In this document: piece by piece, positions 4,485 to 23,986 of the stretch | How positions within the stretch are numbered: the first letter of the stretch is position 1 | Layout: each line of letters begins with the position of its first letter | NCBI GenBank assembly: GCA_947632625.1 | Contig: CANRPZ010000001.1 | Span: 1-41,726 of the forward strand | Direction: 5' to 3' | DNA: 41,726 nucleotides | DNA from: an uncultured Bacilli bacterium | Lineage (GTDB): Bacteria > Bacillota_I > Bacilli_A > RF39 > UBA660 | The notes under the pieces: model-generated | The model's input: only the letters and a program-made list of their open reading frames with translations | What the model was told of the DNA's origin: nothing | Database searches by the model: none | Position numbers and translations under genes: made by a program

Positions 4485-5588
4485 TTATAATGGTAATTTC
4501 ACCTCAAAAGAAATAGAATTATTATCCAATTTTGCTGAAATAGTTCCTTTATGTAACTCTATTATTTCTTTAGCAATAGCTAAACCTATTCCACTACCTC
4601 CAGTTTTAGAAGCTCTAGAATTATCAAGACGATAAAATTTTTCAAACATTTTTTGTAAATCTTCATTCCCTATATTTTTAACTTTATTACAAATCGTAAT
4701 GAATGCCATATGTTTTTCTTTTTTTAAATTAATATTTATTTTAGAATCAGCACTATAATAAATAGCATTTTTAAGTAAGTTATTAAAAACTCTTGCTAAA
4801 CGATTCGAATCACCATCCAAAATTATATTATCTTGAAAATGAGTAACAACCTTTTTTTTATTTTCTTCTAAAATTGGATAGAAATCATCAATAATTTGTT
4901 CAAGCATTAAATTTAAATTTATTTTTTCTTTTTTTAATACAATCTTTTCAGCATTAAATCTTGTAATATCAAATAATTCGTTTATTAAGTCTTCTAATCT
5001 ATACGATTTTTCTAAAACAATTTTTAAATATTTTTCTCTTTGTTTTTTAGGCATATCTTTAATTTCATTTAATAAGGATAAATAACCTATTAAAGATGTT
5101 AAAGGTGTTTTTAAATCATGAGCTAAATAGACAATTAAATCATTTTTACGTTGTTCATTATCTCTAGCATTTAATTCTACTTTATCATAATCTAATTTTA
5201 AAATATTAAAAGTAGCTTGTAAATTTTCCAATTCATTTGGGAGTTCAATTGTTTTCGTCTCTTTATTGGTAATATTTAGGGCACTCTTTCCTATAATATC
5301 GGTATAATAATTAAATTGTTTTTTTAAAAAGAAAAATAAGATAAAACTAGTACCAATTAACCAAATTCCTATTACGATTCCATAAAAACTTAATGAATGT
5401 GACACATAGTAAAAAATTCCTCGTAAATAATAATAAATATTTGGTGAAAATTCAAATAACCACTGAAAATCCATATTACTAAACAAATTAATTAACGCAA
5501 GCAATAGAATAGCAATAAAAATTGTCCAAACAACGATTCTTATTAAAAAAGAAAATATTATTTCTTTAATTCTGTTTTTATTTTTCAA
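4485..5588 (-). CDS. Sensor histidine kinase (VanS/OmpR-partner type)
   Basis: Two N-terminal TM segments, the H-box AHDLKTPLTSLIGYLSLL, an N-box NLLKNAIYYS and a G-box GGSGIGLAIAKEI. Confidence 0.85.
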   Translation of the reverse strand: MKNKNRIKEIIFSFLIRIVVWTIFIAILLLALINLFSNMDFQWLFEFSPNIYYYLRGIFYYVSHSLSFYGIVIGIWLIGTSFILFFFLKKQFNYYTDIIGKSALNITNKETKTIELPNELENLQATFNILKLDYDKVELNARDNEQRKNDLIVYLAHDLKTPLTSLIGYLSLLNEIKDMPKKQREKYLKIVLEKSYRLEDLINELFDITRFNAEKIVLKKEKINLNLMLEQIIDDFYPILEENKKKVVTHFQDNIILDGDSNRLARVFNNLLKNAIYYSADSKININLKKEKHMAFITICNKVKNIGNEDLQKMFEKFYRLDNSRASKTGGSGIGLAIAKEIIELHKGTISAKLDNNSISFEVKLPL

Positions 5589-6264
5589 TTTTATACCCCA
5601 CTCCCCAAATTGTTAAAATATACTTGGGATTTTTTCCTGTATCTTTCATTTTTTCTCTTAAATGTCTTATATGAACCATTATAGTATTATTATCTAATTT
5701 ATAATATTTTTCATCCCAAGCATTTTTAAATAATTCATCCGTGGTAACCACATTACCTCGATTTAAGCATAAATACCATAAAATTTTAAACTCTATTGGA
5801 GTTAAATTAATTTTTTGATCATTATAAAAAAATTCGTGTGTTTTATTATTAATAACAATTCCTCTAAAATCAATAATATCAGTTTCTATATTGCTTTTAT
5901 TATAAGTTTTAAACCTCCGAAGCTGGGCCTTTACTCTAGCAACTAATTCAAGTGGCATGAAGGGTTTCGTTATATAATCATCTGCACCAATCGATAAACC
6001 ATTTATTTTATCGATACTTTCTACTTTCGCCGTTACAAATATAATGGGAAAAGTATATTTCTTACGAATTTTAGAACATAAAGATAAACCATCAATATCT
6101 GGCATCATTATATCAAGGATAGCCAAATCAATTTTTAAATTTTCTATATCTTTTAAAACATTTTTACTATTGTAATATTTATAAACATTGAAACCTTCAT
6201 TTTTTAAATAAATATCAATTAAATCTGCAATTTCTTTCTCATCATCGACAACTAAAATATTCAT
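5578..6264 (-). CDS. OmpR/PhoB-family response regulator
   Basis: It has a receiver domain (ILVVDDE, LAILDIMMPDIDG, TAK) and a winged-helix C-terminus (LTPIEFKILWYL, IWGVGYKI). It overlaps the kinase gene by 11 nt. Confidence 0.88.
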   Translation of the reverse strand: MNILVVDDEKEIADLIDIYLKNEGFNVYKYYNSKNVLKDIENLKIDLAILDIMMPDIDGLSLCSKIRKKYTFPIIFVTAKVESIDKINGLSIGADDYITKPFMPLELVARVKAQLRRFKTYNKSNIETDIIDFRGIVINNKTHEFFYNDQKINLTPIEFKILWYLCLNRGNVVTTDELFKNAWDEKYYKLDNNTIMVHIRHLREKMKDTGKNPKYILTIWGVGYKIEK

Positions 6265-13856: not shown

Positions 13857-14722
13857 CTAGTTAGACAATAGTAAGGAAACTTGCCCACCTTCTAAAGCAT
13901 AGTAATTTCCTTCCGGACTTTGATATAGAACTTTATCTCCTTCGCCACTCGTTAAAACTTGAAACCCTTTCAGTTGTTTTTTGGCTTCCTGAAGACTTAA
14001 GCCAACAACATTAGGAAGCATAACGTATTTTTGATCAAGCCATGTATATTCTCGGGGCATTCCTTCATTTGTTTTTGGATACCCATATAAACTAATAGCG
14101 GTTTTAAAAACATTTTTGGCAATCGGAGCGGAAACAACTCCTCCATATTGTGTAACACCTTTGGGATTATCAATTGCTACATATACTACAATTTCTGGGT
14201 CATCTGCTGGCATAAAGCCCATAAAAGATAAAATATAATTTCCAACCATATAAGCACCATCTTTTACTTTTTGCGCCGTTCCAGTCTTTCCTCCAATTCG
14301 GTAGTTTTCAATATATGCGTTTTTCCCTGAGCCATTCGCAACAACACTTTCTAAAGCGTATCTTACCATTTTACTTGTATCTTCACTAATCACACGAACT
14401 CCTTCATCGGGTTTAAACAATTTTATAACGCTATTGGTTTCGGGCTCTGTCATTTTTGATACAATATAAGGAGTATGTAAAATTCCGCCATTAATCGCTG
14501 CCGAAACTGCACGCACTTGTTGAATAGGTGTAACACTTATCCCTTGACCAAAACTTGTTGTTGCAAGTTCTACTGGACCCATTTTATCTAGAGAAAATAA
14601 TATTCCACTTGCTTCTCCATTTAAATCTACTCCTGTTTTTTTACCAAAACCAAAACTTTGAATATAATTTAATAAACGTTCTGCTCCGAGCTTTTGACCC
14701 ATTACAACAAACCCTGGGTTAC
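13857..14722 (-). CDS. spoVD: 3' segment of the split SpoVD-like class B penicillin-binding protein (transpeptidase C-terminal half plus one PASTA domain)
   Basis: The ORF reads MGQKLGAERLL..GGKTGTAQ (KTG motif)..PNVVGLSLQEAKKQLKGF (PASTA). The frame stays open upstream of the Met as NPGFVV up to the GGTTAC core at 14717..14722. The SxxK and SxN motifs are missing here; they lie in the 5' segment at 20214..21272. Confidence 0.85.
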
Positions 14723-14744
14723 TTTTTTACAAGCAAGAGAGACT
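14717..14744. repeat. attL-like junction: core GGTTAC, 9-bp spacer, then 13-bp repeat AGCAAGAGAGACT
   Basis: Read directly from the sequence as GGTTAC TTTTTTACA AGCAAGAGAGACT. The 13-mer is the exact reverse complement of 20203..20215. Confidence 0.8.
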
Positions 14745-14762: not shown

Positions 14763-16367
14763 TTATTTTCTCATATTTATTTCAATTTCTTCATCTTGTT
14801 TAGCAAAATTAAAGACAACCTGTAACTTTAAATGCTTTCTATCACTATCGATTTTACTCACGAGCACTTTATCAATAAATAAATTAAAATATTTTTTAAT
14901 ATTATTTCTAATGTCCAATTGAAATTCTAACTCTTTTTTTATATTTAAAATTAAAGGTTCATAATAATTAAATTTGGAATCCATTTTTAGTAAATCATTT
15001 TTTAGTTTCAATATCATTTCCTGTATTTTTTTATTTTTACTTTTAAATTCTTCTTCACTAATTAATCTTTTTAAAAACATATCTAGTAATCGTTCTTTAA
15101 ATGTTTCTTGCTCTTTTATTTTTGCTTCTAAAGTTTTATGTGTACAAATACCATTACTTTCTTTAAGTAAAAAGATATAATCTTTTACAATTGCATTTAA
15201 TATTTCCGTTTTATTTTCTATAAATTTTTCCAACCTATTAGCAAAAATTTCATCTAACTGTTTTTCATATAATATTGGTGTTTTACATCCCTTTATACCA
15301 TGTCTCAAATATTCATTACATTGCCAAACAGGATTTTCTTTTCTTTTACCACTTGCTGTTCTTATAAAAGTTGTATGATGTTCTATGCAAAATAATTTCG
15401 ATGTATAATTCTTATTTTCTAGATAAAATTCTTTATTTAAAACGTTTTTATTCCATATTTCTGTTCTTTTCTCTAATATTTTGTTCGCTTTATTCCAAAT
15501 TTTTTCTGTAACAATAGGAGGAATTATTTCCGGAGTTGCTTTTTCAAGTACCCATTCCTCTTTAGGATTCAATTTTTTCTTATGCGTTTTGTAATCCACA
15601 ATACTACTCATATTGGCAGTATACCATCCCTTGTATCGATAATTTTTAATCATTTTCTTTAATGTTGCATCACTAAAAATTTTACCTTTTCTAGTATAAT
15701 ATCCATTTTCTGCTAAAATTTCTCCGATTTTTTTGAACCCATATTCTCCTGATGAATATAAATTATATAATAATTTTACAGCAGGAGCTTCTTTTTCATT
15801 TATAATCAGTTTACAATCTTTTTTATTATAACCATAAAGCCCTCCCCCACCAACTTTTCGATCCTTAACGCTTCTTTTAATACCAAATTTTACTCTTTCT
15901 GATAGTTTACGAACCTCATCTTGGGCCATGCTTGCCATTAAAGTTAATCGAAATTCGCTGTCTGGATAAATCGTATTTATATTATCGGAAATAAAAAAGA
16001 CAATAACACCATAATTTAATAATAATTGAGTATATTTTATACTATCGATTGTATTACGAGCAAATCTAGAAACCTCTTTTGTTAAAATTAAATCAATTTT
16101 TCCTAATCTAGCATCCTCTATCATTTTTAAAAACTGCTCTCTTTTATAAACTTGCGTTCCACTTATCCCCTCATCACTATAACTTGCGACATGCAACCAT
16201 GAGTTCACATTAGAAATCATATCGTGAAAATATTTCACTTGATTTTCTAACGAATTTAATTGATCATCCTTATCCGTTGAAACTCGCCCATAATCTGCAA
16301 CTCTTAAATTCATATCATAAATTGTTTTACCGAGCATTAACTCCCTTCTTGCCTGAATTATATCCAA
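14763..16367 (-). CDS. Large serine recombinase (SpoIVCA/TnpX-like)
   Basis: The N-terminal resolvase domain has the catalytic-Ser context VADYGRVSTDKDDQLNSLENQ, plus LILTKEVSRFARN. A recombinase domain, a Cys-containing zinc-ribbon-like region (CIEHH..WQCNEYLRHGIKGC) and a C-terminal coiled coil follow. The start is uncertain: TTG at 16367, ATG at 16337 or ATG at 16313. Confidence 0.9.
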   Translation of the reverse strand: MDIIQARRELMLGKTIYDMNLRVADYGRVSTDKDDQLNSLENQVKYFHDMISNVNSWLHVASYSDEGISGTQVYKREQFLKMIEDARLGKIDLILTKEVSRFARNTIDSIKYTQLLLNYGVIVFFISDNINTIYPDSEFRLTLMASMAQDEVRKLSERVKFGIKRSVKDRKVGGGGLYGYNKKDCKLIINEKEAPAVKLLYNLYSSGEYGFKKIGEILAENGYYTRKGKIFSDATLKKMIKNYRYKGWYTANMSSIVDYKTHKKKLNPKEEWVLEKATPEIIPPIVTEKIWNKANKILEKRTEIWNKNVLNKEFYLENKNYTSKLFCIEHHTTFIRTASGKRKENPVWQCNEYLRHGIKGCKTPILYEKQLDEIFANRLEKFIENKTEILNAIVKDYIFLLKESNGICTHKTLEAKIKEQETFKERLLDMFLKRLISEEEFKSKNKKIQEMILKLKNDLLKMDSKFNYYEPLILNIKKELEFQLDIRNNIKKYFNLFIDKVLVSKIDSDRKHLKLQVVFNFAKQDEEIEINMRK

Positions 16368-16384
16368 TTTTTCAAGTCCTTTCT

Positions 16385-16570
16385 TTAGGTTTGAAATTCT
16401 AATAATAACTTATCAATTTTTTTCCCTAATAAATTTTGCATTTTATTATAAATATCCAAAGATATTATTTTTTTTTCATATAAATCTTTATTGATAGACA
16501 TTCTTAATTTTAAAATAAGATACTCTTTGGGTAATTTTTTGGTTTTCTCTTTTTCATTTATAAAATCCAA
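16385..16570 (-). CDS. Small hypothetical protein (about 61 aa) directly upstream of the recombinase
   Basis: AGGAGGAGG lies 7 nt upstream of a TTG at 16570..16568, inside the longer tool ORF. The product is LDFINEKEKTKKLPKEYLILKLRMSINKDLYEKKIISLDIYNKMQNLLGKKIDKLLLEFQT. I recognise no family. Confidence 0.45.
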   Translation of the reverse strand: MDFINEKEKTKKLPKEYLILKLRMSINKDLYEKKIISLDIYNKMQNLLGKKIDKLLLEFQT

Positions 16571-16608
16571 ATAAATTCCTCCTCCTATTAAAATTATTAA
16601 ATTCAAGC

Positions 16609-16635
16609 AAAAAAAAGAACTTATATAAAATTCTT
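16609..16635 (-). terminator. Weak candidate intrinsic terminator after the ABC-transporter genes
   Basis: The minus strand reads AAGAATTTTATATAAGTTCTT followed by T8. The stem is short and AT-rich. Confidence 0.4.
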
Positions 16636-16644
16636 AATAAATTC

Positions 16645-17295
16645 TTAATCAAAATAATTTTTATTTAAATTAATTTTAAACAAATTAAAACAAAATAATA
16701 GAATATCAAGAATAACTAAAAAGGCTATTGATATTGCATACCCATTATAATAATACGAAAAAATTAAAAAAAGAAGATATCCTACAAAAAAAATAGTATA
16801 AAATTTATTTTTATAAATAATTACACTTACTATTGCCAAAAGCAAACTATAAGCCCAAATAAGATCTAAAAAAAATAGCGATGGAAAAAAAGTAAATTTT
16901 CCTATAAGAATATAATATAAAAACGAAAGAATAAAAGCGTGTCCAATTTTATATATAAACAAAAATACAGAAAGAACGATTGTTTTTTTTAAATACCAAT
17001 TTTTATCATTAATGCGAGTAAAAATATTTATTTTTGACACAATCAAATCTTGAATGATTAAATAATATATTAAATAGATTTGAAAAAAAAGTAGAAATAA
17101 TTTTAATATTAATAATAATATATTGGCTTGATTTAAGCTAATATTTCCATAAAATACATCGAATAAGCTATAAGTTCCATTTTTATATATAAGTCCAATA
17201 CTACAAATGAGAACAATTTCTAAAAAAAGAAAAAGGATTATTTGCTTCCATTTATTTTTTAAGTTATAAAATGTTTTTTTTATAAAATATTGCAT
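16645..17295 (-). CDS. Polytopic membrane protein, putative ABC-2/LanG-like permease subunit
   Basis: About 6 hydrophobic segments. The ATG overlaps the upstream stop (ATGA), and the gene lies downstream of an ABC ATPase. Confidence 0.55.
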   Translation of the reverse strand: MQYFIKKTFYNLKNKWKQIILFLFLEIVLICSIGLIYKNGTYSLFDVFYGNISLNQANILLLILKLFLLFFQIYLIYYLIIQDLIVSKINIFTRINDKNWYLKKTIVLSVFLFIYKIGHAFILSFLYYILIGKFTFFPSLFFLDLIWAYSLLLAIVSVIIYKNKFYTIFFVGYLLFLIFSYYYNGYAISIAFLVILDILLFCFNLFKINLNKNYFD

Positions 17296-18011
17296 CAGCC
17301 CATATCCCTCCTTAAAGCACTTATTACTTGATACAAAATAGTAGCTATAGTTACTAATATGAAAATAAGAAGCAAAGAGTAGTGAACATCCAAAGTAATA
17401 TTTTCAAATCGAGGATTTAATAAGTAATACCCAAAAAAGAACTTAAAATGCGTTGCAATTTCAAAAGAAATAGGATAAATAACCAAAGATAAGGCAATTA
17501 AACAAGCCAAAATGAACGAAAATAAAGGATGAATTAAGTTCCATAAGTAATATAAAATTAGCGAAAGCACAGAACTAATTAGTATAAAACGACAAAAATG
17601 GTATATAAAATAAATTAAAATATTAATTCCATTAATAGACATATTAATAGAAAAATCACCTATATATTTAAAAAATAGCGGAATACAATTCATCATAAAA
17701 GATAATAAAATAACTATGCCATTAGTAATAAAAATGATTATAGACATTTCAGCAATGTAACTTTTTTTACTTTTATGACGTATAATCACCGAATAATTTT
17801 TTTTATATAAATCACAAATATTTAAAGTATTAACAAATAAACACAAAAGTAGTATAGCATTAAACCAAGAACTATTATAAATACTATATATTCCATAAAA
17901 AAAACCTGTTTGATTTGCGATATCCATCACACCATAAAAACTATTGATTATTAATATTAAAAAAATTCCCTTAAATTTATAGCTATTAAAACTATTAATT
18001 ACAAAACTCAT
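17295..18011 (-). CDS. Polytopic membrane protein, putative ABC-2/LanE-like permease subunit
   Basis: About 6 hydrophobic segments. I chose the start at MSFVINSF (ATG 18011), 1 nt after the ATPase stop. The tool ORF extends to 18080 by overlapping the ATPase gene. Confidence 0.55.
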   Translation of the reverse strand: MSFVINSFNSYKFKGIFLILIINSFYGVMDIANQTGFFYGIYSIYNSSWFNAILLLCLFVNTLNICDLYKKNYSVIIRHKSKKSYIAEMSIIIFITNGIVILLSFMMNCIPLFFKYIGDFSINMSINGINILIYFIYHFCRFILISSVLSLILYYLWNLIHPLFSFILACLIALSLVIYPISFEIATHFKFFFGYYLLNPRFENITLDVHYSLLLIFILVTIATILYQVISALRRDMG

Positions 18012-18012
18012 T

Positions 18013-18666
18013 TTATCTTTCAGTTTTCTTATCATTATATTTCTCCAATTTACCATCTTTAAATTTATAAACCTCATCACATAAATACTCTATATCCTCT
18101 TTAATATGAGAAGCAATAATAATTGTTTTGCCCTTTTTCTTTTCCTCCCTTAAATAATCTCTAAACTTTTTAGCAGTTTCGTCCTCAATACCATTTAAAG
18201 GCTCATCAAAAATAAGAACACTAGGATTTTCCATAATAACTTGAGCAAGACCTAATTTTTGTTTCATTCCTAACGAATACTTTCCATATTTTTTATCTTT
18301 TTCGGCATCAATATTAACAATCTTCATAGCGTCTATAATATCGTCATCTGAAATTTTATTTTGAATACTTGCTAATAATTTTAAATTTTCAAAACCTGTT
18401 AATTCTGGAATAAAATCAGGAGATTCAATTAAAGCTCTAGTATTTGGAGAAAAATTATTTTTATTATTATAATTCACACCATCAAAAAGTACACTACCCT
18501 CACTTGGAAAATAAAATCCACAAATGATTTTTAATAGTACACTTTTTCCTGATCCATTAGGACCAATCAATCCATAAATTTTTCCACTGTTAAAAGTTAT
18601 TGTAATATTTTTTAGAATATCAATCCCTTTAAAACTTTTTGATAAATTTTTTACCTCAATTTTCAT
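18013..18666 (-). CDS. ABC transporter ATP-binding protein (bacteriocin/lantibiotic-protection type by size and context)
   Basis: Walker A GPNGSGKS, Q-loop, signature YSLGMKQK, Walker B VLIFDEP and an H-loop SH. The start is set at ATG 18666, with GTGAGG 6 nt upstream. Confidence 0.85.
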   Translation of the reverse strand: MKIEVKNLSKSFKGIDILKNITITFNSGKIYGLIGPNGSGKSVLLKIICGFYFPSEGSVLFDGVNYNNKNNFSPNTRALIESPDFIPELTGFENLKLLASIQNKISDDDIIDAMKIVNIDAEKDKKYGKYSLGMKQKLGLAQVIMENPSVLIFDEPLNGIEDETAKKFRDYLREEKKKGKTIIIASHIKEDIEYLCDEVYKFKDGKLEKYNDKKTER

Positions 18667-18674
18667 ATCATACC

Positions 18675-19565
18675 TCACTTAATCATTTCACAATCCATAA
18701 TTGTTTTTTCTTTATTCTTATAACAGCAGTATACAATAAAAGTTGATATAGCTGCATATAAAAATCCAACAATTAAAAATGGTCCAATTCCAAATACATA
18801 TTTATAGGAATAAATATCATAAATATTTAAAATTGATTGAATTTGAATATGCAAAACTTTATAAAAAATAGTTGTAATCACCGCTTCGTTAATGATTTCA
18901 ATTCCAATAAAAGTTAAATAAGCCTCTATAATTGCAACTATCAAACTTTTATTTTTTTTAACATAAAGTAATCCTAAATTAGCATAGAAAATACTAAAGA
19001 ATACTAAATTTAGTAAATAGCTTATAAAAAACAAACCAAAATTTTTTAAGTATATCTCATCAAACGTAGAATAAGAATTTGCTAATGCAAATGAATAATC
19101 AAAATTTCCTTTTGATAAAAAACAAGAAATCATAAATACAATAATCATTAAAAAAGGTAAAATCCAAATACATTTATATGCGTTTTTAAAAAGGTGTTTT
19201 AAATAATTTGAATAATTATTCCGTAGTAAATAATTTTTTAAATAAGAATTTTTCATTTCTTTTGCTATGCACCATATAGCAGGAATAAGAATAAAAAGTG
19301 GTCCAAATCCACATAATATACTTAAAGAACCATCAACTACAATACTAAAAAATATCGTATATGCATCTACTGGAGGTGATTCCCATTCTAAAATAGTACT
19401 ACAATTTGACTTTACAGAGGGATTTTGTATGCATTCATTTTTTGCATTTGAAAAATATTTTTCAATTTTGTAGCGATTAACTGCATAAGAAATACCTCCA
19501 CTTAAGGCAATAACTAATAAAATTAAAAAAGAAATAATAATGGCTCGATTTTTCAAATATTTCAT
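18675..19565 (-). CDS. Polytopic membrane protein of unknown function with a Cys-containing extracellular loop
   Basis: An N-terminal TM segment, the loop NECIQNPSVKSNCSTILEWESPP, then about 5 more TM segments. It is the first membrane gene of the element operon. Confidence 0.55.
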   Translation of the reverse strand: MKYLKNRAIIISFLILLVIALSGGISYAVNRYKIEKYFSNAKNECIQNPSVKSNCSTILEWESPPVDAYTIFFSIVVDGSLSILCGFGPLFILIPAIWCIAKEMKNSYLKNYLLRNNYSNYLKHLFKNAYKCIWILPFLMIIVFMISCFLSKGNFDYSFALANSYSTFDEIYLKNFGLFFISYLLNLVFFSIFYANLGLLYVKKNKSLIVAIIEAYLTFIGIEIINEAVITTIFYKVLHIQIQSILNIYDIYSYKYVFGIGPFLIVGFLYAAISTFIVYCCYKNKEKTIMDCEMIK

Positions 19566-19612
19566 AATAAACTCCTAAATTAATAGCAAAGGGAATAATT
19601 TATTTTTGCTAA

Positions 19613-20032
19613 TTAAAGCATTCTATCGTCAATATACCAAGAACCAGAATGGCTAGCAGTAGTTACAGCTGACTTTTCTCTACGTAAAAGTAAAGTATAT
19701 TCATCACCGCTAAATATATTAATTGAATTGCTACCCCATGTTCCAGTTTCATTTTGTTTTACAGTTATAAAACTACTTTTTCCAGAATCACTAGATGTTT
19801 GTGCTTTTATATTTACTATAGCAGACGTTAAATTATCAACAGCTCCTGAACTATAATAGTATTGTGGACTATCAATTTCCTTTATATGAGTATAAGCTTC
19901 TACAGTATTTCCAAAAGTAGGTAAAGTAATTCCTACTATTGATTGATACCCTTTATTGTAAGCAAAAGAAGCTAATGCTGAAAAAACGCAAGATACAGAA
20001 AATGCTAAAATTGTATACTTTAAATATTTCAT
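19613..20032 (-). CDS. Small secreted protein of unknown function (about 139 aa)
   Basis: The start is ATG 20032, with GTGAGGTGG 9 nt upstream. The signal peptide is MKYLKYTILAFSVSCVFSALASFA. The mature part is Ser/Thr-rich and looks beta-rich. I recognise no family. Confidence 0.55.
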   Translation of the reverse strand: MKYLKYTILAFSVSCVFSALASFAYNKGYQSIVGITLPTFGNTVEAYTHIKEIDSPQYYYSSGAVDNLTSAIVNIKAQTSSDSGKSSFITVKQNETGTWGSNSINIFSGDEYTLLLRREKSAVTTASHSGSWYIDDRML

Positions 20033-20152
20033 ATAATTATACCACCTCACTTAATACATTCCCTTTGCTATCCTCATAATAACATAGTAAAACAATAAAT
20101 TTTACTTGTAAAGTCTAAAAAGTCCTTTAAATTGTTCGAAATTACATTTTGC

Positions 20153-20202: not shown

Positions 20203-20230
20203 AGTCTCTCTTGCTAAAATTCTAGGTTAC
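20203..20230. repeat. attR-like junction: 13-bp repeat AGTCTCTCTTGCT, 9-bp spacer, then core GGTTAC
   Basis: Read directly from the sequence as AGTCTCTCTTGCT AAAATTCTA GGTTAC. It mirrors 14717..14744. Confidence 0.8.
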
Positions 20231-21272
20231 AAGAGTTTTCTACAACTTGTAAAAAGGTTTCTGCTCCATGCCCTCCTGCTTTCCAACATTTAATTCGGGC
20301 ATTTTCAACAGCAATAGATCCACTATCATAGTAATTATCTTTAAATAGATTAATCGTTTGCTCTTGTAAAGAAGCTGCAAGCGTAATAACTTTAAAAGTT
20401 GATCCAGGTTCATAAGTCATCCAAATAGGCAAATTTCGGTTAATAACCTCTACAGAAGCTGTTTGGTAATGATTAGGATTAAAATTAGGACGACTTGCCA
20501 TTGCTAAAATTTCTCCAGTTTTAGGGTTCATTGCCAAAATAAGAGCTTGATCTGGATTATATTTTGTCATAACATTATCGAGTTCATTTTCTATAGAAAG
20601 TTGTAAATCGATATCAATAGTTAAATCCACATTAATACCATTTTGGGGTTCTTCATAAATTTCAGTTAAGGAAAGACGATTCCCCTTGCCATCCGAAAAA
20701 TATTTAATAGCTCCATCTTCTCCTGTTAAATACGCATCATAATTTAACTCAATTCCTGAAAGCCCTTGATTGTCAATTCCAACATACCCTAAAACATGAG
20801 ATAAAACATTATCATAAGGGTAATATCTTTTGCTTTCTTTTACTAAATATACTCCGTCATAACCTAGATTGTTTATTTGTTCTGCAACATCATAAGAAAG
20901 TTGCCTTCCTTCTGGGTGTACTCTTTCAATGGATGTTTTTTTTGCCACATGGCGATACATTTCTTCATAAGATACGTTTAATATTTCGGCAAGTTTTGTA
21001 GCAACCTCTTCTTTATTTATAATTTGATTAGGAATTAATACTAATGAGGTAGTGGTTAAGTTCGTTGCTAAAACTTTACCATTACGATCCCTAATTTCTC
21101 CCCTATCCGCTGTTATAGGTAATTTACGACTCCACAAAGATTCAGCCAAGGAATTTAATTGATCATATTTAAAGACTTGTATATAAAAGACTCGAAAAAC
21201 AATGATAAACAAAAGTATAATAACAGCAACTAAAATGAATCTTATACGACTATGAATCGTATTAAAAAACAT
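20214..21272 (-). CDS. spoVD: 5' segment of the split SpoVD-like class B penicillin-binding protein (TM anchor, dimerisation domain, start of transpeptidase)
   Basis: It has an N-terminal TM segment, ADRGEIRDRNGKVLA, the SxxK motif (EPGSTFKVITL) and ends at ..VVENSCN. Three element-encoded codons (LEF) and a stop follow. Confidence 0.88.
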   Translation of the reverse strand: MFFNTIHSRIRFILVAVIILLFIIVFRVFYIQVFKYDQLNSLAESLWSRKLPITADRGEIRDRNGKVLATNLTTTSLVLIPNQIINKEEVATKLAEILNVSYEEMYRHVAKKTSIERVHPEGRQLSYDVAEQINNLGYDGVYLVKESKRYYPYDNVLSHVLGYVGIDNQGLSGIELNYDAYLTGEDGAIKYFSDGKGNRLSLTEIYEEPQNGINVDLTIDIDLQLSIENELDNVMTKYNPDQALILAMNPKTGEILAMASRPNFNPNHYQTASVEVINRNLPIWMTYEPGSTFKVITLAASLQEQTINLFKDNYYDSGSIAVENARIKCWKAGGHGAETFLQVVENSCNLEF

Positions 21273-21323: not shown

Positions 21324-21357
21324 AAAAAAATGAAACAACTATTCCTCTATTGTTTCA
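21324..21357 (-). terminator. Intrinsic terminator after the DUF1292 gene
   Basis: An 8-bp perfect stem TGAAACAA/TTGTTTCA (21331..21338 and 21350..21357) has an 11-nt loop containing the stop codon. T7 follows on the minus strand. Confidence 0.6.
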
Positions 21358-21626
21358 TTTGCTTCTTTAAATAAATCAAAAAAGATTTTAGATATTTCCT
21401 TTAGTTCATCAGCTTCGACTATTTTTTCAATCGTTTCATTGCCTTCACTAACGACTAATTTTCCAATCATCTGATTTTGCTCTATTAAATTTTCTTCTTT
21501 ATCGACCTCAATTAAATAAAGATAAGTGCATTCATTATAAAGAACTAAATTTGCTACAACATAATCGTGATCTTTTCCTTCTTCATCCTCAATTGTTACA
21601 ATTTTATATTGCTCTATTTTTTCCAT
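21339..21626 (-). CDS. DUF1292 / YrzB-like small acidic protein
   Basis: 95 aa reading IVTIEDEEGKDHDYVVANLVLYNECTYLYLIEVD.., the typical DUF1292 pattern. The ATG overlaps the stop of the upstream gene (TAATG). Confidence 0.6.
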   Translation of the reverse strand: MEKIEQYKIVTIEDEEGKDHDYVVANLVLYNECTYLYLIEVDKEENLIEQNQMIGKLVVSEGNETIEKIVEADELKEISKIFFDLFKEANETIEE

Positions 21627-23986
21627 TAACGCCCTTTCCTCTCTATAGTATCATTTATAAAATGACTTTCACTTTCATTAAAGAATCCTTCATAACCATT
21701 TGAATTTGAATTTTCCATTCTACCAACATAACCTATTTGTTTAGCACCATTATTTTCTAATGCTGCCTTTTTGGCATTGGCATCTAAATCATTTTCAAAT
21801 ATCGTTATCTTTTCACCATTATAAAGATAAACAATCCCTCCAACGGTTCTTACATTTAAAGCATCAAAATAAGTAGGTACACCATTTTTTTCGCTTGCCA
21901 TATCATATTGATTACTATAAATTATACCTTCCGTTGTAAAAGTATCCCCAAAATCATGATACTCTTCTTTTTCCGGCGTAGGATTTGAAATCAAAATATC
22001 TTCTTTACGATTAACTAAATTTTGTTGAGCGATAGCACTTGATTGTTTTTCAGAATCCGAATTTAATAATTTGTTTATATTTTGTGCAAATTCATCATTG
22101 CTCGTATTTAAATTTTCCAAAGAAGAATTGCGATTTTCAGAATCTAAATCAAAAACCGCTGTTTTATTTTCATCTATTGAAACACGATAATCTTTTGCAA
22201 TCTCTTCATCATTTTCTTCGTTAATTTGTAAAGAATTATCCGGAAGAATAGAAGAGGTACGTAAAGCATTCAATCCTAAAATAGAAATTCCTACAACAGC
22301 CGTAGAAAGAGCCCCAATTAAAACTTTTTTACGAGTAGCTTCTTTTACATTTTTTACTTTTAAGACATGCTTTTTATCCTTTGGAATTTTATTTAAACTG
22401 CTTTTAATTTTTAAATAGGTATCTTCTAAAATATTTGTTTTTTCTTTATTTGTAAATGCGGCATTTAATTTTTCCATTAATACATTAAACACGTTTTTCT
22501 TCTCTTCATCAGAATATCTTGAATCTTTTATAAATTCATCGGGATTTAAAGCAGCGGACATAAATACTTTTTCTAACGTACTACCAATAAAAGTAGATTT
22601 TAAAGCCACTTTTAGATTAGCAAAAACAGCCAATTTTTTGCCTTTATTAAATGCATATAATTTTTTACGTAGTTTCTTTTCTTCTTCATCTCTTAATGCT
22701 AAACCATCATTTTGCTTTAACTTTTCAATTTCTTTATAAATTTTTAAAGTTGTATCCTCTATAGTTTCGACATCAAGATAGCAATCGATAAATTCAAAAT
22801 CATGCATGGCAGAAAATTCTTTAAGACGTGCTTGATATTTTTTATATTTCATAAAAACGATATTAAAGCGATCCAAATCCTTTTTTAAAATATAAAGTGG
22901 CTCTTTATTATAAGAAGCAACAGCTATTACATCTTTCGAATTACCATGTTGTTTTGCTTCACGTACTAAAGAGAACAATCTTTCTTCAGCATATAAAAAA
23001 TCTTCATAGATATGGGCATACTCTTCTGCCAGGTTTTCTGTTTCTTCTAAAGAGTCAGCATTCGAAATTTCTTTATTGTATTTTTCCATATAAGAATTTA
23101 ATTTATTTTGATACAAAATCCATCTAGATTTATATTTTGAAGAAATTCGCTTTGTCGTTTTCCTATATTTTACAGCAACCTTTTTTCCCGAAGCTTTTTC
23201 AATATTAGCTAAAATACCTTTAATATAAAGAATTTTATCCGTAAGGTTTACAAGGGATTTCAAATATTGTTCATCAATTACAAGTGTTTTTTCCTCTACA
23301 ACAATTGGTTCATGTTTATCCGTTTGTTCTTTACTAAATAAATGATTAAGCGCATCCAAAGTTTCATTTCCTATATCTTGTAAGCTTTGAGCATCAATAG
23401 GTTCATAACCTTCTAAAGAAACCTCACGAATACGATTTGTAGCTTGACCAAGAGTTTCAATACGTTCATAAGCTTCCATCATTTCTTTTGGTCCTTGAAG
23501 ATTTTTTAAGTTTTCCGTTAATTTTGTAAATTTACGACTTGCCTTTTCTTTATGGTTTGCTAAAGGATTTACAATACGTACAAAATTATCGTTTAATTCA
23601 TTATACAAAGTTTCTCGTTTATGCATAACTTGTGAATTAAAGAAAATCAATTTTCGAACATCTTCCCATTCGCTTTTGATCTCGGCTTTTTCTACAAAAC
23701 CAATAACATGATGATAATGCAAAAGATGATTAATAACTGGTACAAGCAATAAAAGAAAATCGTTTTCCTTTTCTAAAGAATTGACTAAATGGCTTCTAAA
23801 AGAATCATGTTCAAGAGAATCATAGATAGAGGTATATTCTTGTAAAAGATTTTCTACTTGTAAAACAAACTGATTAAAGTCCGAAATATCCTCCATTTTT
23901 AGAGTATTTTTTAGGATACTTTCTTCAAGTGCATTTATTTTCGCTTCGAATTGGTTTAGTCTTTCATTATAATTATCCATGTCCAT
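21626..23986 (-). CDS. Large bitopic protein of unknown function (coiled-coil-rich cytoplasmic N-terminus, one TM, extracellular C-terminal domain)
   Basis: 786 aa. About 545 aa are Lys/Glu-rich and helical, followed by the TM segment VLIGALSTAVVGISILGLNAL and a C-terminal region of about 220 aa. I recognise no motif. Confidence 0.6.
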   Translation of the reverse strand: MDMDNYNERLNQFEAKINALEESILKNTLKMEDISDFNQFVLQVENLLQEYTSIYDSLEHDSFRSHLVNSLEKENDFLLLLVPVINHLLHYHHVIGFVEKAEIKSEWEDVRKLIFFNSQVMHKRETLYNELNDNFVRIVNPLANHKEKASRKFTKLTENLKNLQGPKEMMEAYERIETLGQATNRIREVSLEGYEPIDAQSLQDIGNETLDALNHLFSKEQTDKHEPIVVEEKTLVIDEQYLKSLVNLTDKILYIKGILANIEKASGKKVAVKYRKTTKRISSKYKSRWILYQNKLNSYMEKYNKEISNADSLEETENLAEEYAHIYEDFLYAEERLFSLVREAKQHGNSKDVIAVASYNKEPLYILKKDLDRFNIVFMKYKKYQARLKEFSAMHDFEFIDCYLDVETIEDTTLKIYKEIEKLKQNDGLALRDEEEKKLRKKLYAFNKGKKLAVFANLKVALKSTFIGSTLEKVFMSAALNPDEFIKDSRYSDEEKKNVFNVLMEKLNAAFTNKEKTNILEDTYLKIKSSLNKIPKDKKHVLKVKNVKEATRKKVLIGALSTAVVGISILGLNALRTSSILPDNSLQINEENDEEIAKDYRVSIDENKTAVFDLDSENRNSSLENLNTSNDEFAQNINKLLNSDSEKQSSAIAQQNLVNRKEDILISNPTPEKEEYHDFGDTFTTEGIIYSNQYDMASEKNGVPTYFDALNVRTVGGIVYLYNGEKITIFENDLDANAKKAALENNGAKQIGYVGRMENSNSNGYEGFFNESESHFINDTIERKGR

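Follow-up and report, generated by a model that had tools for sequence, protein, structure and literature searches.

We analysed a stretch of DNA of 41,726 nucleotides (the window hereafter; GC content 27.7%) in contig CANRPZ010000001.1 of an uncultured Bacilli bacterium (GCA_947632625.1). The sporulation gene spoVD in this window is interrupted by an integrated element of 5,508 bp, the two ends of which are attL and attR, each a hybrid of an attP-type half and a half made of spoVD codons. Our analysis suggests that this is probably an element of a large serine recombinase (LSR) that leaves by exact excision in the mother cell during sporulation and so makes spoVD whole again. We are highly confident, from comparison with related elements, that the two ends are the att sites of the recombinase with the crossover on a central TT dinucleotide. 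That the excision is linked to sporulation is less certain, and by analogy with other interrupted sporulation genes we lean towards it. The target spoVD, which was not named by an earlier note on the same DNA, is what gives this site its biology.

The split spoVD gene and the sites at its junctions

If the 5,508 bp are removed in silico with one copy of the hexamer GGTTAC kept, the two parts of spoVD join into an uninterrupted class B penicillin-binding protein (PBP) of 635 aa. The rebuilt protein scores 722.4 bits against the NCBIfam model TIGR02214 spoVD_pbp (stage V sporulation protein D), for which the equivalog cut-off is 688. The junction falls at ...Glu-Asn-Ser-Cys-Asn/Pro-Gly-Phe-Val..., i.e. 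at the SxN motif, which is part of the active site of the transpeptidase. Read along the coding strand, the hexamer is GTAACC, in which the central AA makes up positions 1 and 2 of the invariant Asn codon. The empty site attB consists of the codons for Glu-Asn-Ser-Cys-Asn-Pro-Gly-Phe, and the predicted attB of 44-50 bp is GTTGTAGAAAACTCTTGTAACCCAGGGTTTGTTGTAATGGG. The features of the split gene and of the two ends are as follows.

13857..14722, minus strand: spoVD 3' part, residues 348-635 (from the hexamer at 14717-14722 on), with PGFV..., KTG and PASTA
14717-14722, no strand: left GGTTAC hexamer copy, with the predicted crossover TT at 14719-14720
14720..14744, no strand: 25-bp half-site of the attP type, on the recombinase side; its arm recurs in 32 of 32 related junctions of this type with the same spacing
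14723-14731: left spacer TTTTTTACA, 9 bp
14732-14744: left 13-mer arm AGCAAGAGAGACT
20203-20215: right 13-mer arm AGTCTCTCTTGCT
20203..20227, no strand: 25-bp half-site of the attP type, on the cargo side; its arm recurs in 18 of 18 related junctions of this type with the same spacing
20216-20224: right spacer AAAATTCTA, 9 bp
20225-20230, no strand: right GGTTAC hexamer copy, with the central TT at 20227-20228
20225..21272, minus strand: spoVD 5' part, residues 1-349, ending in ...ENSCN and holding the SxxK motif (STFK)

The earlier note had described a GGTTAC copy and a 13-bp inverted repeat lying 9 bp inside each end, and all the bases are as it stated. The arms AGCAAGAGAGACT and AGTCTCTCTTGCT are exact reverse complements, each 9 bp off its hexamer, and the centre of symmetry lies between T14719 and T14720 on the left and between T20227 and T20228 on the right. 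Joining the two ends in silico gives the attP that had been proposed, a near-palindromic site of 50 bp made of two 25-bp half-sites with perfect 13-bp arms around a non-palindromic TT centre. The experimentally mapped attP of SPbeta has a like design, with symmetric 25-bp halves around AA/TT (PMC5499854). The same two-half form of 50 bp is also found in 17 relatives. The host-side flanks do not have the 13-mer at either end of the element, and the expectation that attB lacks this repeat holds at all loci.

The genes between the repeats are all on the minus strand, and a single recombinase is encoded among them.

14763..16367, minus strand: LSR, 534 aa, with its stop codon 19 nt from the left arm

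Three Pfam domains are found in this protein, all above the gathering cut-offs: Resolvase (PF00239, 95.9 bits, 3.1e-27), Recombinase (PF07508, 68.5 bits, 6.4e-19) and Zn_ribbon_recom (PF13408, 27.9 bits, 3.1e-6). Its catalytic motif Y-G-R-V-S-T is intact and aligns with that of PDB 3G13, which is also the nearest solved structure to the catalytic domain (E = 2.9e-41), followed by TnpX 2MHC (4.6e-9). On the basis of its domains, the form of attP and the difference of attB from it, the 534-aa protein is classified as a member of the LSR class. The view of the earlier note that the ends are att sites of a recombinase agrees well with this content, the sole recombinase inside being an LSR of three domains whose catalytic motif is intact. 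The architecture of the element is canonical for serine integrases. An exact-sequence look-up of the LSR in public assemblies gave nothing on record, and no close relative was found in the annotated phage or plasmid collections, where the best match has 43% identity; the closest phage recombinases in INPHARED are at most 43% identical.

Proposed excision from a gene that is kept under selection

In the mechanism that we propose, an LSR dimer would bind each of attL and attR. It would then cut with a 2-nt stagger at TT/AA, rotate and religate the strands, a step in which the family comparison gives us high confidence. Exact excision would release a circle with attP and leave an intact 635-aa spoVD. 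By analogy with skin, SPbeta and gin, this would take place during sporulation in the mother cell, which is terminally differentiated and needs spoVD for cortex synthesis, and the forespore chromosome would retain the element. Since the mother cell is discarded, excision there would cost the element nothing. A small partner gene, called F2 and described below, would license the attL x attR recombination. As in the known sporulation gene-intervening elements, the insertion interrupts the codons of a sporulation gene, and precise removal restores the frame in silico.

The evidence on the host comes from the 42-kb window of an uncultured organism. The endospore-former markers seen in these 42 kb are spoIIP (168.5 bits, cut-off 123), gpr (144.8 bits, cut-off 120) and the split spoVD itself, which is under purifying selection. 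The dcw genes mraZ, rsmH, ftsL and mraY are also in the window, together with a PBP2X-like division PBP and a third class B PBP, which makes two class B PBPs besides the split spoVD. Judged by these genes, the host resembles an endospore former, with PBPs to spare. The presence of the other class B PBPs along with spoIIP and gpr suggests that the split spoVD is the paralogue dedicated to sporulation. The B. subtilis spoVD is a sigmaE-dependent cortex gene of the mother cell (PMC517825), and by analogy a mother-cell sigmaE expression of spoVD is assumed for this host.

We scanned one genome per GTDB species for relatives of the LSR, and 80 loci were returned, numbered here with the prefix L. 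The recombinases of 34 loci are 56-74% identical to the LSR of the window, and all of these adjoin a spoVD fragment cut at residue 347-349. Nearly all of the 34 are in metagenome-assembled genomes of uncultured gut Bacilli, Tenericutes or Erysipelotrichaceae (from rabbit, ruminant, chicken and human).

The strongest competing explanation is that of an ordinary integrative element with no developmental role, for which the conserved PBP motif is a landing pad and the insertion of which knocks out spoVD, its carriers being asporogenous or getting the gene back only through rare unregulated excision. We consider it unlikely, given how well the split gene is kept. All 25 complete spoVD 3' halves are intact open reading frames (ORFs) of 285-289 aa with the KTG retained, and all the complete 5' halves are open with their catalytic motifs kept. 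The pairwise ratios of nonsynonymous to synonymous substitution rates (dN/dS) of either half range from 0.03 to 0.28. The most telling pair is L003 and L005, in which the LSRs are 94% identical and the att spacers are one base apart, so that the two very likely inherited one insertion. Their spoVD genes have dS = 0.28 and dN/dS = 0.033; such a value since a shared insertion is hard to square with a dead gene, and implies that spoVD is periodically made whole. The retention in the window of spoIIP and gpr above the curated cut-offs points the same way, and every published interruption of a mother-cell sporulation gene that was tested excises during sporulation.

Several observations nevertheless weigh against an excision tied to sporulation, most of them in favour of the ordinary element. 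The identities of the LSRs and of the SpoVD proteins are barely correlated (Spearman 0.10, Mantel p ~0.055), and in one pair, L020 and L029, SpoVD is 91% identical and the LSR only 61%. A strict co-divergence of LSR and SpoVD, as under vertical inheritance, is rejected by the same statistics. The low correlation means that the elements move between hosts horizontally, and some of the insertions may be recent. The cargo is variable and looks adaptive, e.g. an ABC transporter resembling those for lantibiotic protection. A search for sigmaE-, sigmaK- or sigma-70-type promoters upstream of F2 and the LSR found none that was convincing. The gut Bacilli group of the hosts is related to lineages for which the loss of many sporulation genes is reported (bioRxiv 10.1101/2022.02.25.481979). 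The predicted attP, with both arms around AA, had 0 matches in viral contigs and a metagenome collection, a weak negative in that a control scan for the integrated junction in the metagenome collection found just 7 loci. The excision is inferred from sequence comparison. We still prefer, with these points counted, the reading in which the element leaves spoVD in the sporulating mother cell.

The crossover dinucleotide in related elements

Serine recombinases exchange strands with a 2-nt stagger, and the two nucleotides must be identical in both partners. We re-anchored the junctions of the relatives on the Asn codon; those resolved number 32 at the recombinase end and 18 at the opposite end. 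The 13-mer is located exactly 9 + 2 = 11 nt from the central AA in every one of these junctions, and its family consensus is AGTATCTCTTGCT / AGCAAGAGATACT, with AGCAAGAGATACT being the recombinase-side arm. Besides the element of the window, 17 elements have both ends on one contig, with lengths of 3.0-11.4 kb. The identity shared by the two junctions is AA alone in six of these 17 (L019, L021, L023, L024, L027 and L031), AAT in one, AACC or AATC in nine, and 10 bp in one. As only AA agrees with both the 2-nt identity and the Cys-Asn-Pro readout in the six elements, the crossover is pinned to AA/TT.

The crossover on the central TT, which the earlier note had predicted from the window, is thus upheld by the six elements and by the constant distance of 11 nt between the arms and AA/TT. 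That note had also staked its boundaries on those of related elements, and these turn out to be identical. Its 6-bp core GGTTAC fared differently: the six bases are there in the window, but as a feature of the system the core does not stand, since only the central dinucleotide is universal in the relatives and the longer identity is an accident of the window.

Two further observations come from the half-sites and from inverted elements. Every one of the four types of half-site has G3 and C6, in one and the same register, and attB shares only inner positions such as these. The block of LSR, F2 and cargo is inverted relative to spoVD and the arms in L023 and L034, with the arm geometry, the spacing and the central AA kept. 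Such an inversion fits near-palindromic arms that are neutral in orientation, with the polarity set by the central dinucleotide alone.

It is very unlikely, in our assessment, that strands are exchanged in the window at another dinucleotide of the 6-bp identity, e.g. GT, TA or AC. If the window were taken by itself, any position in GGTTAC would yield the same products. The symmetry centre of the 13-mer arms, however, is exactly on TT, AA/TT is the sole shared identity in six relatives, the spacing is invariant in all the resolved junctions, and the inner positions G3 and C6 align only in the TT register.

The repeat geometry by itself is not unique and would not convince. For one pre-specified pair of ends, sampled from the window, the chance of an in-register perfect match of at least 13 bp within 40 bp is ~4e-6. 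A blind scan of all 405,557 direct-repeat pairs of 6-mers that are 2.5-15 kb apart in the window showed that ~5 other pairs reach runs of at least 13, all AT-rich. The geometry is significant because the split reading frame of spoVD fixes the boundaries independently, and because all the junctions that were resolved in the relatives have the same arms, spacing and centre. That the repeats are terminal inverted repeats with a target-site duplication of a transposase element, or a chance match in AT-rich DNA as the ~5 other pairs of the scan might suggest, has a negligible probability, since the element has no transposase and a serine recombinase as its sole recombinase, the repeats are 9 bp inside the ends and not terminal, the 13-mer is relatively GC-rich and conserved, and above all the would-be duplication goes down to 2 bp in relatives and the insertion is at the same codon in 34 species, by which the transposon reading is effectively refuted.

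A model of the Listeria integrase has a 5-bp shift of the outer motif, for which our sites gave a best-but-weak signal at +5 on one attB arm and none on the other. On the 5' attB arm, GGTAG/GGTAT lies 5 bp nearer the centre than AGTAT does in the attP arms, and this echoes the shift of the Listeria integrase zinc domain.

The scan also returned ~45 recombinases (L035-L080) that are 38-42% identical to the LSR of the window and are not beside spoVD. A conserved gene for an NMT1-like substrate-binding protein lies downstream of them, on the opposite strand, in 31 loci.

A small partner gene upstream of the recombinase

F2 lies between the LSR and the cargo.

16385..16570, minus strand: F2, partner ORF of 61 aa, directly upstream of the LSR, with a TTG start at 16570, 8 nt after AGGAGG

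Apart from the LSR, F2 alone is common to all 18 elements, and it is always directly upstream of the LSR on the same strand. Clustering found it in 16 of the 18, and the remaining two have shorter forms of 41-44 aa. In L023 it is inverted together with the LSR. The conserved motif of F2 is LPKEYxILxLR...NKxLYExKxIS...IYxKMQxxLxKKM, and its homologues make up 175 unnamed clusters in the protein database, with no Pfam domain. The AlphaFold2 model is a two-helix hairpin (pLDDT 84.5), the resemblance of which to the coiled-coil hairpins of integrases is generic.

By its position, size and synteny, F2 is a candidate recombination directionality factor like GirX, SprB or CD1234, and we give this role an even chance. 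Several points speak against it. The assignment of the role is guesswork from synteny. In Pfam the only match is SHOCT_2 below the threshold (E = 0.086), with no significant family, and a fold search against the Protein Data Bank (PDB) gave no significant match (best E 0.78). Transposon recombinases of the TnpX type can excise without a separate directionality factor. The catalytic domain of the LSR is nearest to the TnpX type, which weighs against a need for F2.

The region upstream of F2 (16571-16640 of the window, minus strand) has a 7-bp terminator-like hairpin (GAACTC...GAGTTC), a T-run, a AACTTAATAnTCTTAAT box and a strong ribosome-binding site. This block is kept at the corresponding place in 14 of 16 elements, with compensatory changes in two stem pairs. 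The hairpin and the AT-rich box may serve as an insulating terminator, a promoter or an attenuator.

Comparison with known systems

The sporulation genes reported in the literature to be interrupted are sigK, spsM, spoVFB, spoVR, gerE, yabG and spoVK. We found no mention of spoVD as a target in the searchable literature on sporulation gene-intervening elements. The spoVD element is a new case within this known class, which includes skin, SPbeta, vfbin, vrin, gin and yin.

The closest analogue is gin in gerE of Bacillus cereus, which encodes the recombinase GirC and the 42-aa GirX needed for excision (PMC5595907). Both are small non-prophage elements in a mother-cell sporulation gene, with an LSR and a very small partner. 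The att sites of gin are imperfect inverted repeats with a predicted AA cleavage (PMC5595907), and the spoVD element is likewise centred on AA. F2 has 61 aa and a predicted helical hairpin, and neither it nor GirX has a named domain. The two elements differ in the target gene (gerE versus spoVD), in the host (the B. cereus group versus uncultured gut Bacilli), and in that the partner gene of the spoVD element is always directly upstream of the recombinase. The excision of gin and the role of its partner are proven, whereas those of the spoVD element are inferred.

SPbeta in spsM of B. subtilis, with SprA and SprB, shares with the spoVD element the attP design, an asymmetric attB in coding sequence and an excision that rebuilds a sporulation gene, although in our case the latter is a prediction. 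SPbeta is an active phage of 134 kb with a 16-bp shared core, whereas the spoVD element has 5.5 kb, no phage genes and a 2-bp overlap in the family. In the skin elements of sigK (SpoIVCA in B. subtilis; CD1231/CD1234 in C. difficile; PMC5025042, bioRxiv 10.1101/2022.02.25.481979), only the recombinase is common across species, and a small directionality factor governs excision that is specific to the cell type. The target of skin is a sigma factor gene, whereas spoVD is the gene of a structural enzyme, so that no regulatory cascade would hang on the excision.

By sequence, the nearest solved catalytic domains are PDB 3G13 and that of TnpX; these and the recombinases TnpX/TndX of Tn4451 and Tn5397 are likewise LSRs of clostridial-type elements. 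Tn4451 and Tn5397 are antibiotic-resistance transposons with looser targets, whereas the spoVD family is tied to a single codon in a single gene. XisF, of the fdxN element in heterocyst-forming cyanobacteria, is also an LSR, and excises its element from a gene in cells that have differentiated terminally. The LSR of the window matches the XisF model NF041201 weakly (70.7 bits, cut-off 375), and the phylum and the developmental programme are different.

Other recombinase lineages that cut spoVD

The SxN codon is not the only position at which spoVD is cut. A second lineage of recombinases, 36-39% identical to the LSR of the window, cuts the gene inside the SxxK motif (PGS/TFK) with the shared core TTTAAAAT, and the element at this site has internal inverted repeats of its own. 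In these genomes the elements at the SxxK and SxN sites leave spoVD in three pieces. A third lineage cuts spoVD at GQGxSVTP/IQ, and its recombinase in L018 is 46% identical to that of the window. The positions are as follows.

L005 (~1119, 5373): SxxK-site element
L019 (~420, 3665): SxxK-site element
L034 (~12028, 9313): SxxK-site element
L024 (1399): SxxK-site element, located by fragment start
L025 (2609): SxxK-site element, located by fragment start
L018 11883-15815: GQGxSVTP/IQ-site element, with the conserved end ...CTTGTTGTCTAATAAATGATACC... and a matching inverted arm at the far end
L007 (~3302): same GQGxSVTP/IQ-site element end
L009 (~3035): same GQGxSVTP/IQ-site element end
L015 (~11951): same GQGxSVTP/IQ-site element end
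L016 (~11969): same GQGxSVTP/IQ-site element end

We tentatively suggest, at somewhat below even confidence, that spoVD is modular and multiply split in this clade of gut Bacilli, with three distant LSR lineages on the SxxK, SxN and GQGxSVTPIQ codons. The gene would then need two or three orthogonal excisions in the mother cell, and F2 would be a new family of directionality factors for the SxN site. If the elements do target motif codons, the unexcised gene would surely be null and attB would be conserved across genera, the latter of which would explain the horizontal spread of the elements.

A relic copy was found in L015 (10001-17459), in which the recombinase has no R-V-S-T motif and reads YSRVLRNTDE. 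The recombinase is followed by a 70-aa spoVD fragment (residues 347-417), a GQGxSVTP/IQ-site element end and genes resembling nudix, HAD and rsgA, and then by an intact spoVD (15555-17459) and mraY. This locus could be a decayed composite element or a chimera of strains in the assembly.

Cargo of the element and neighbouring genes

The remaining genes of the element are its variable cargo.

16645..20050, minus strand: variable cargo of three membrane proteins (216, 261 and 296 aa), an ABC ATPase and a 145-aa protein
18013-18678, minus strand: cargo ABC ATPase, 221 aa, closest to the lantibiotic-protection ABC subfamily TIGR03740

The score of the ATPase against TIGR03740 is 178 bits, below the cut-off of 309.75. 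The 145-aa protein has a hydrophobic N-terminus. The ABC module of ATPase and membrane proteins is present in five of the 18 elements, i.e. that of the window, L003, L005, L023 and L031. Other elements carry single giant ORFs of 1,300-1,900 aa in place of this module. An Rfam screen of the element gave no match.

Two ORFs of 786 and 95 aa are located between the division PBP and spoVD (21339-23986 of the window, minus strand), a place where dcw clusters normally have none. For the 786-aa ORF there is no match in NCBIfam or Pfam, and the 95-aa ORF has a weak sub-threshold match to DUF1292. A VanS/VanR-like two-component system is also encoded in the window (4485-6264, minus strand), with VanR scoring 359 bits against NF033117 (cut-off 350); there are no van resistance genes among the annotated ORFs nearby.

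Significance

The sites of this family are short and fully defined, and the LSR, its attP/attB pair and the candidate directionality factor make up a possible compact and orthogonal tool for genome engineering. The family is also a remarkably clean natural dataset for the site recognition of serine integrases, with 18 complete attP/attB pairs of invariant geometry and a 2-bp overlap that follows from comparison alone; it offers natural covariation of the arms as well, and two natural flips of polarity (L023 and L034). If the reading of multiple splits holds, several selfish elements would have converged on the catalytic codons of one developmental gene. With the element described here, spoVD, the gene of a penicillin-binding protein for cortex synthesis, would be added to the few sporulation genes that are published as interrupted by excisable elements, and the phenomenon would extend to the uncultured gut Bacilli.

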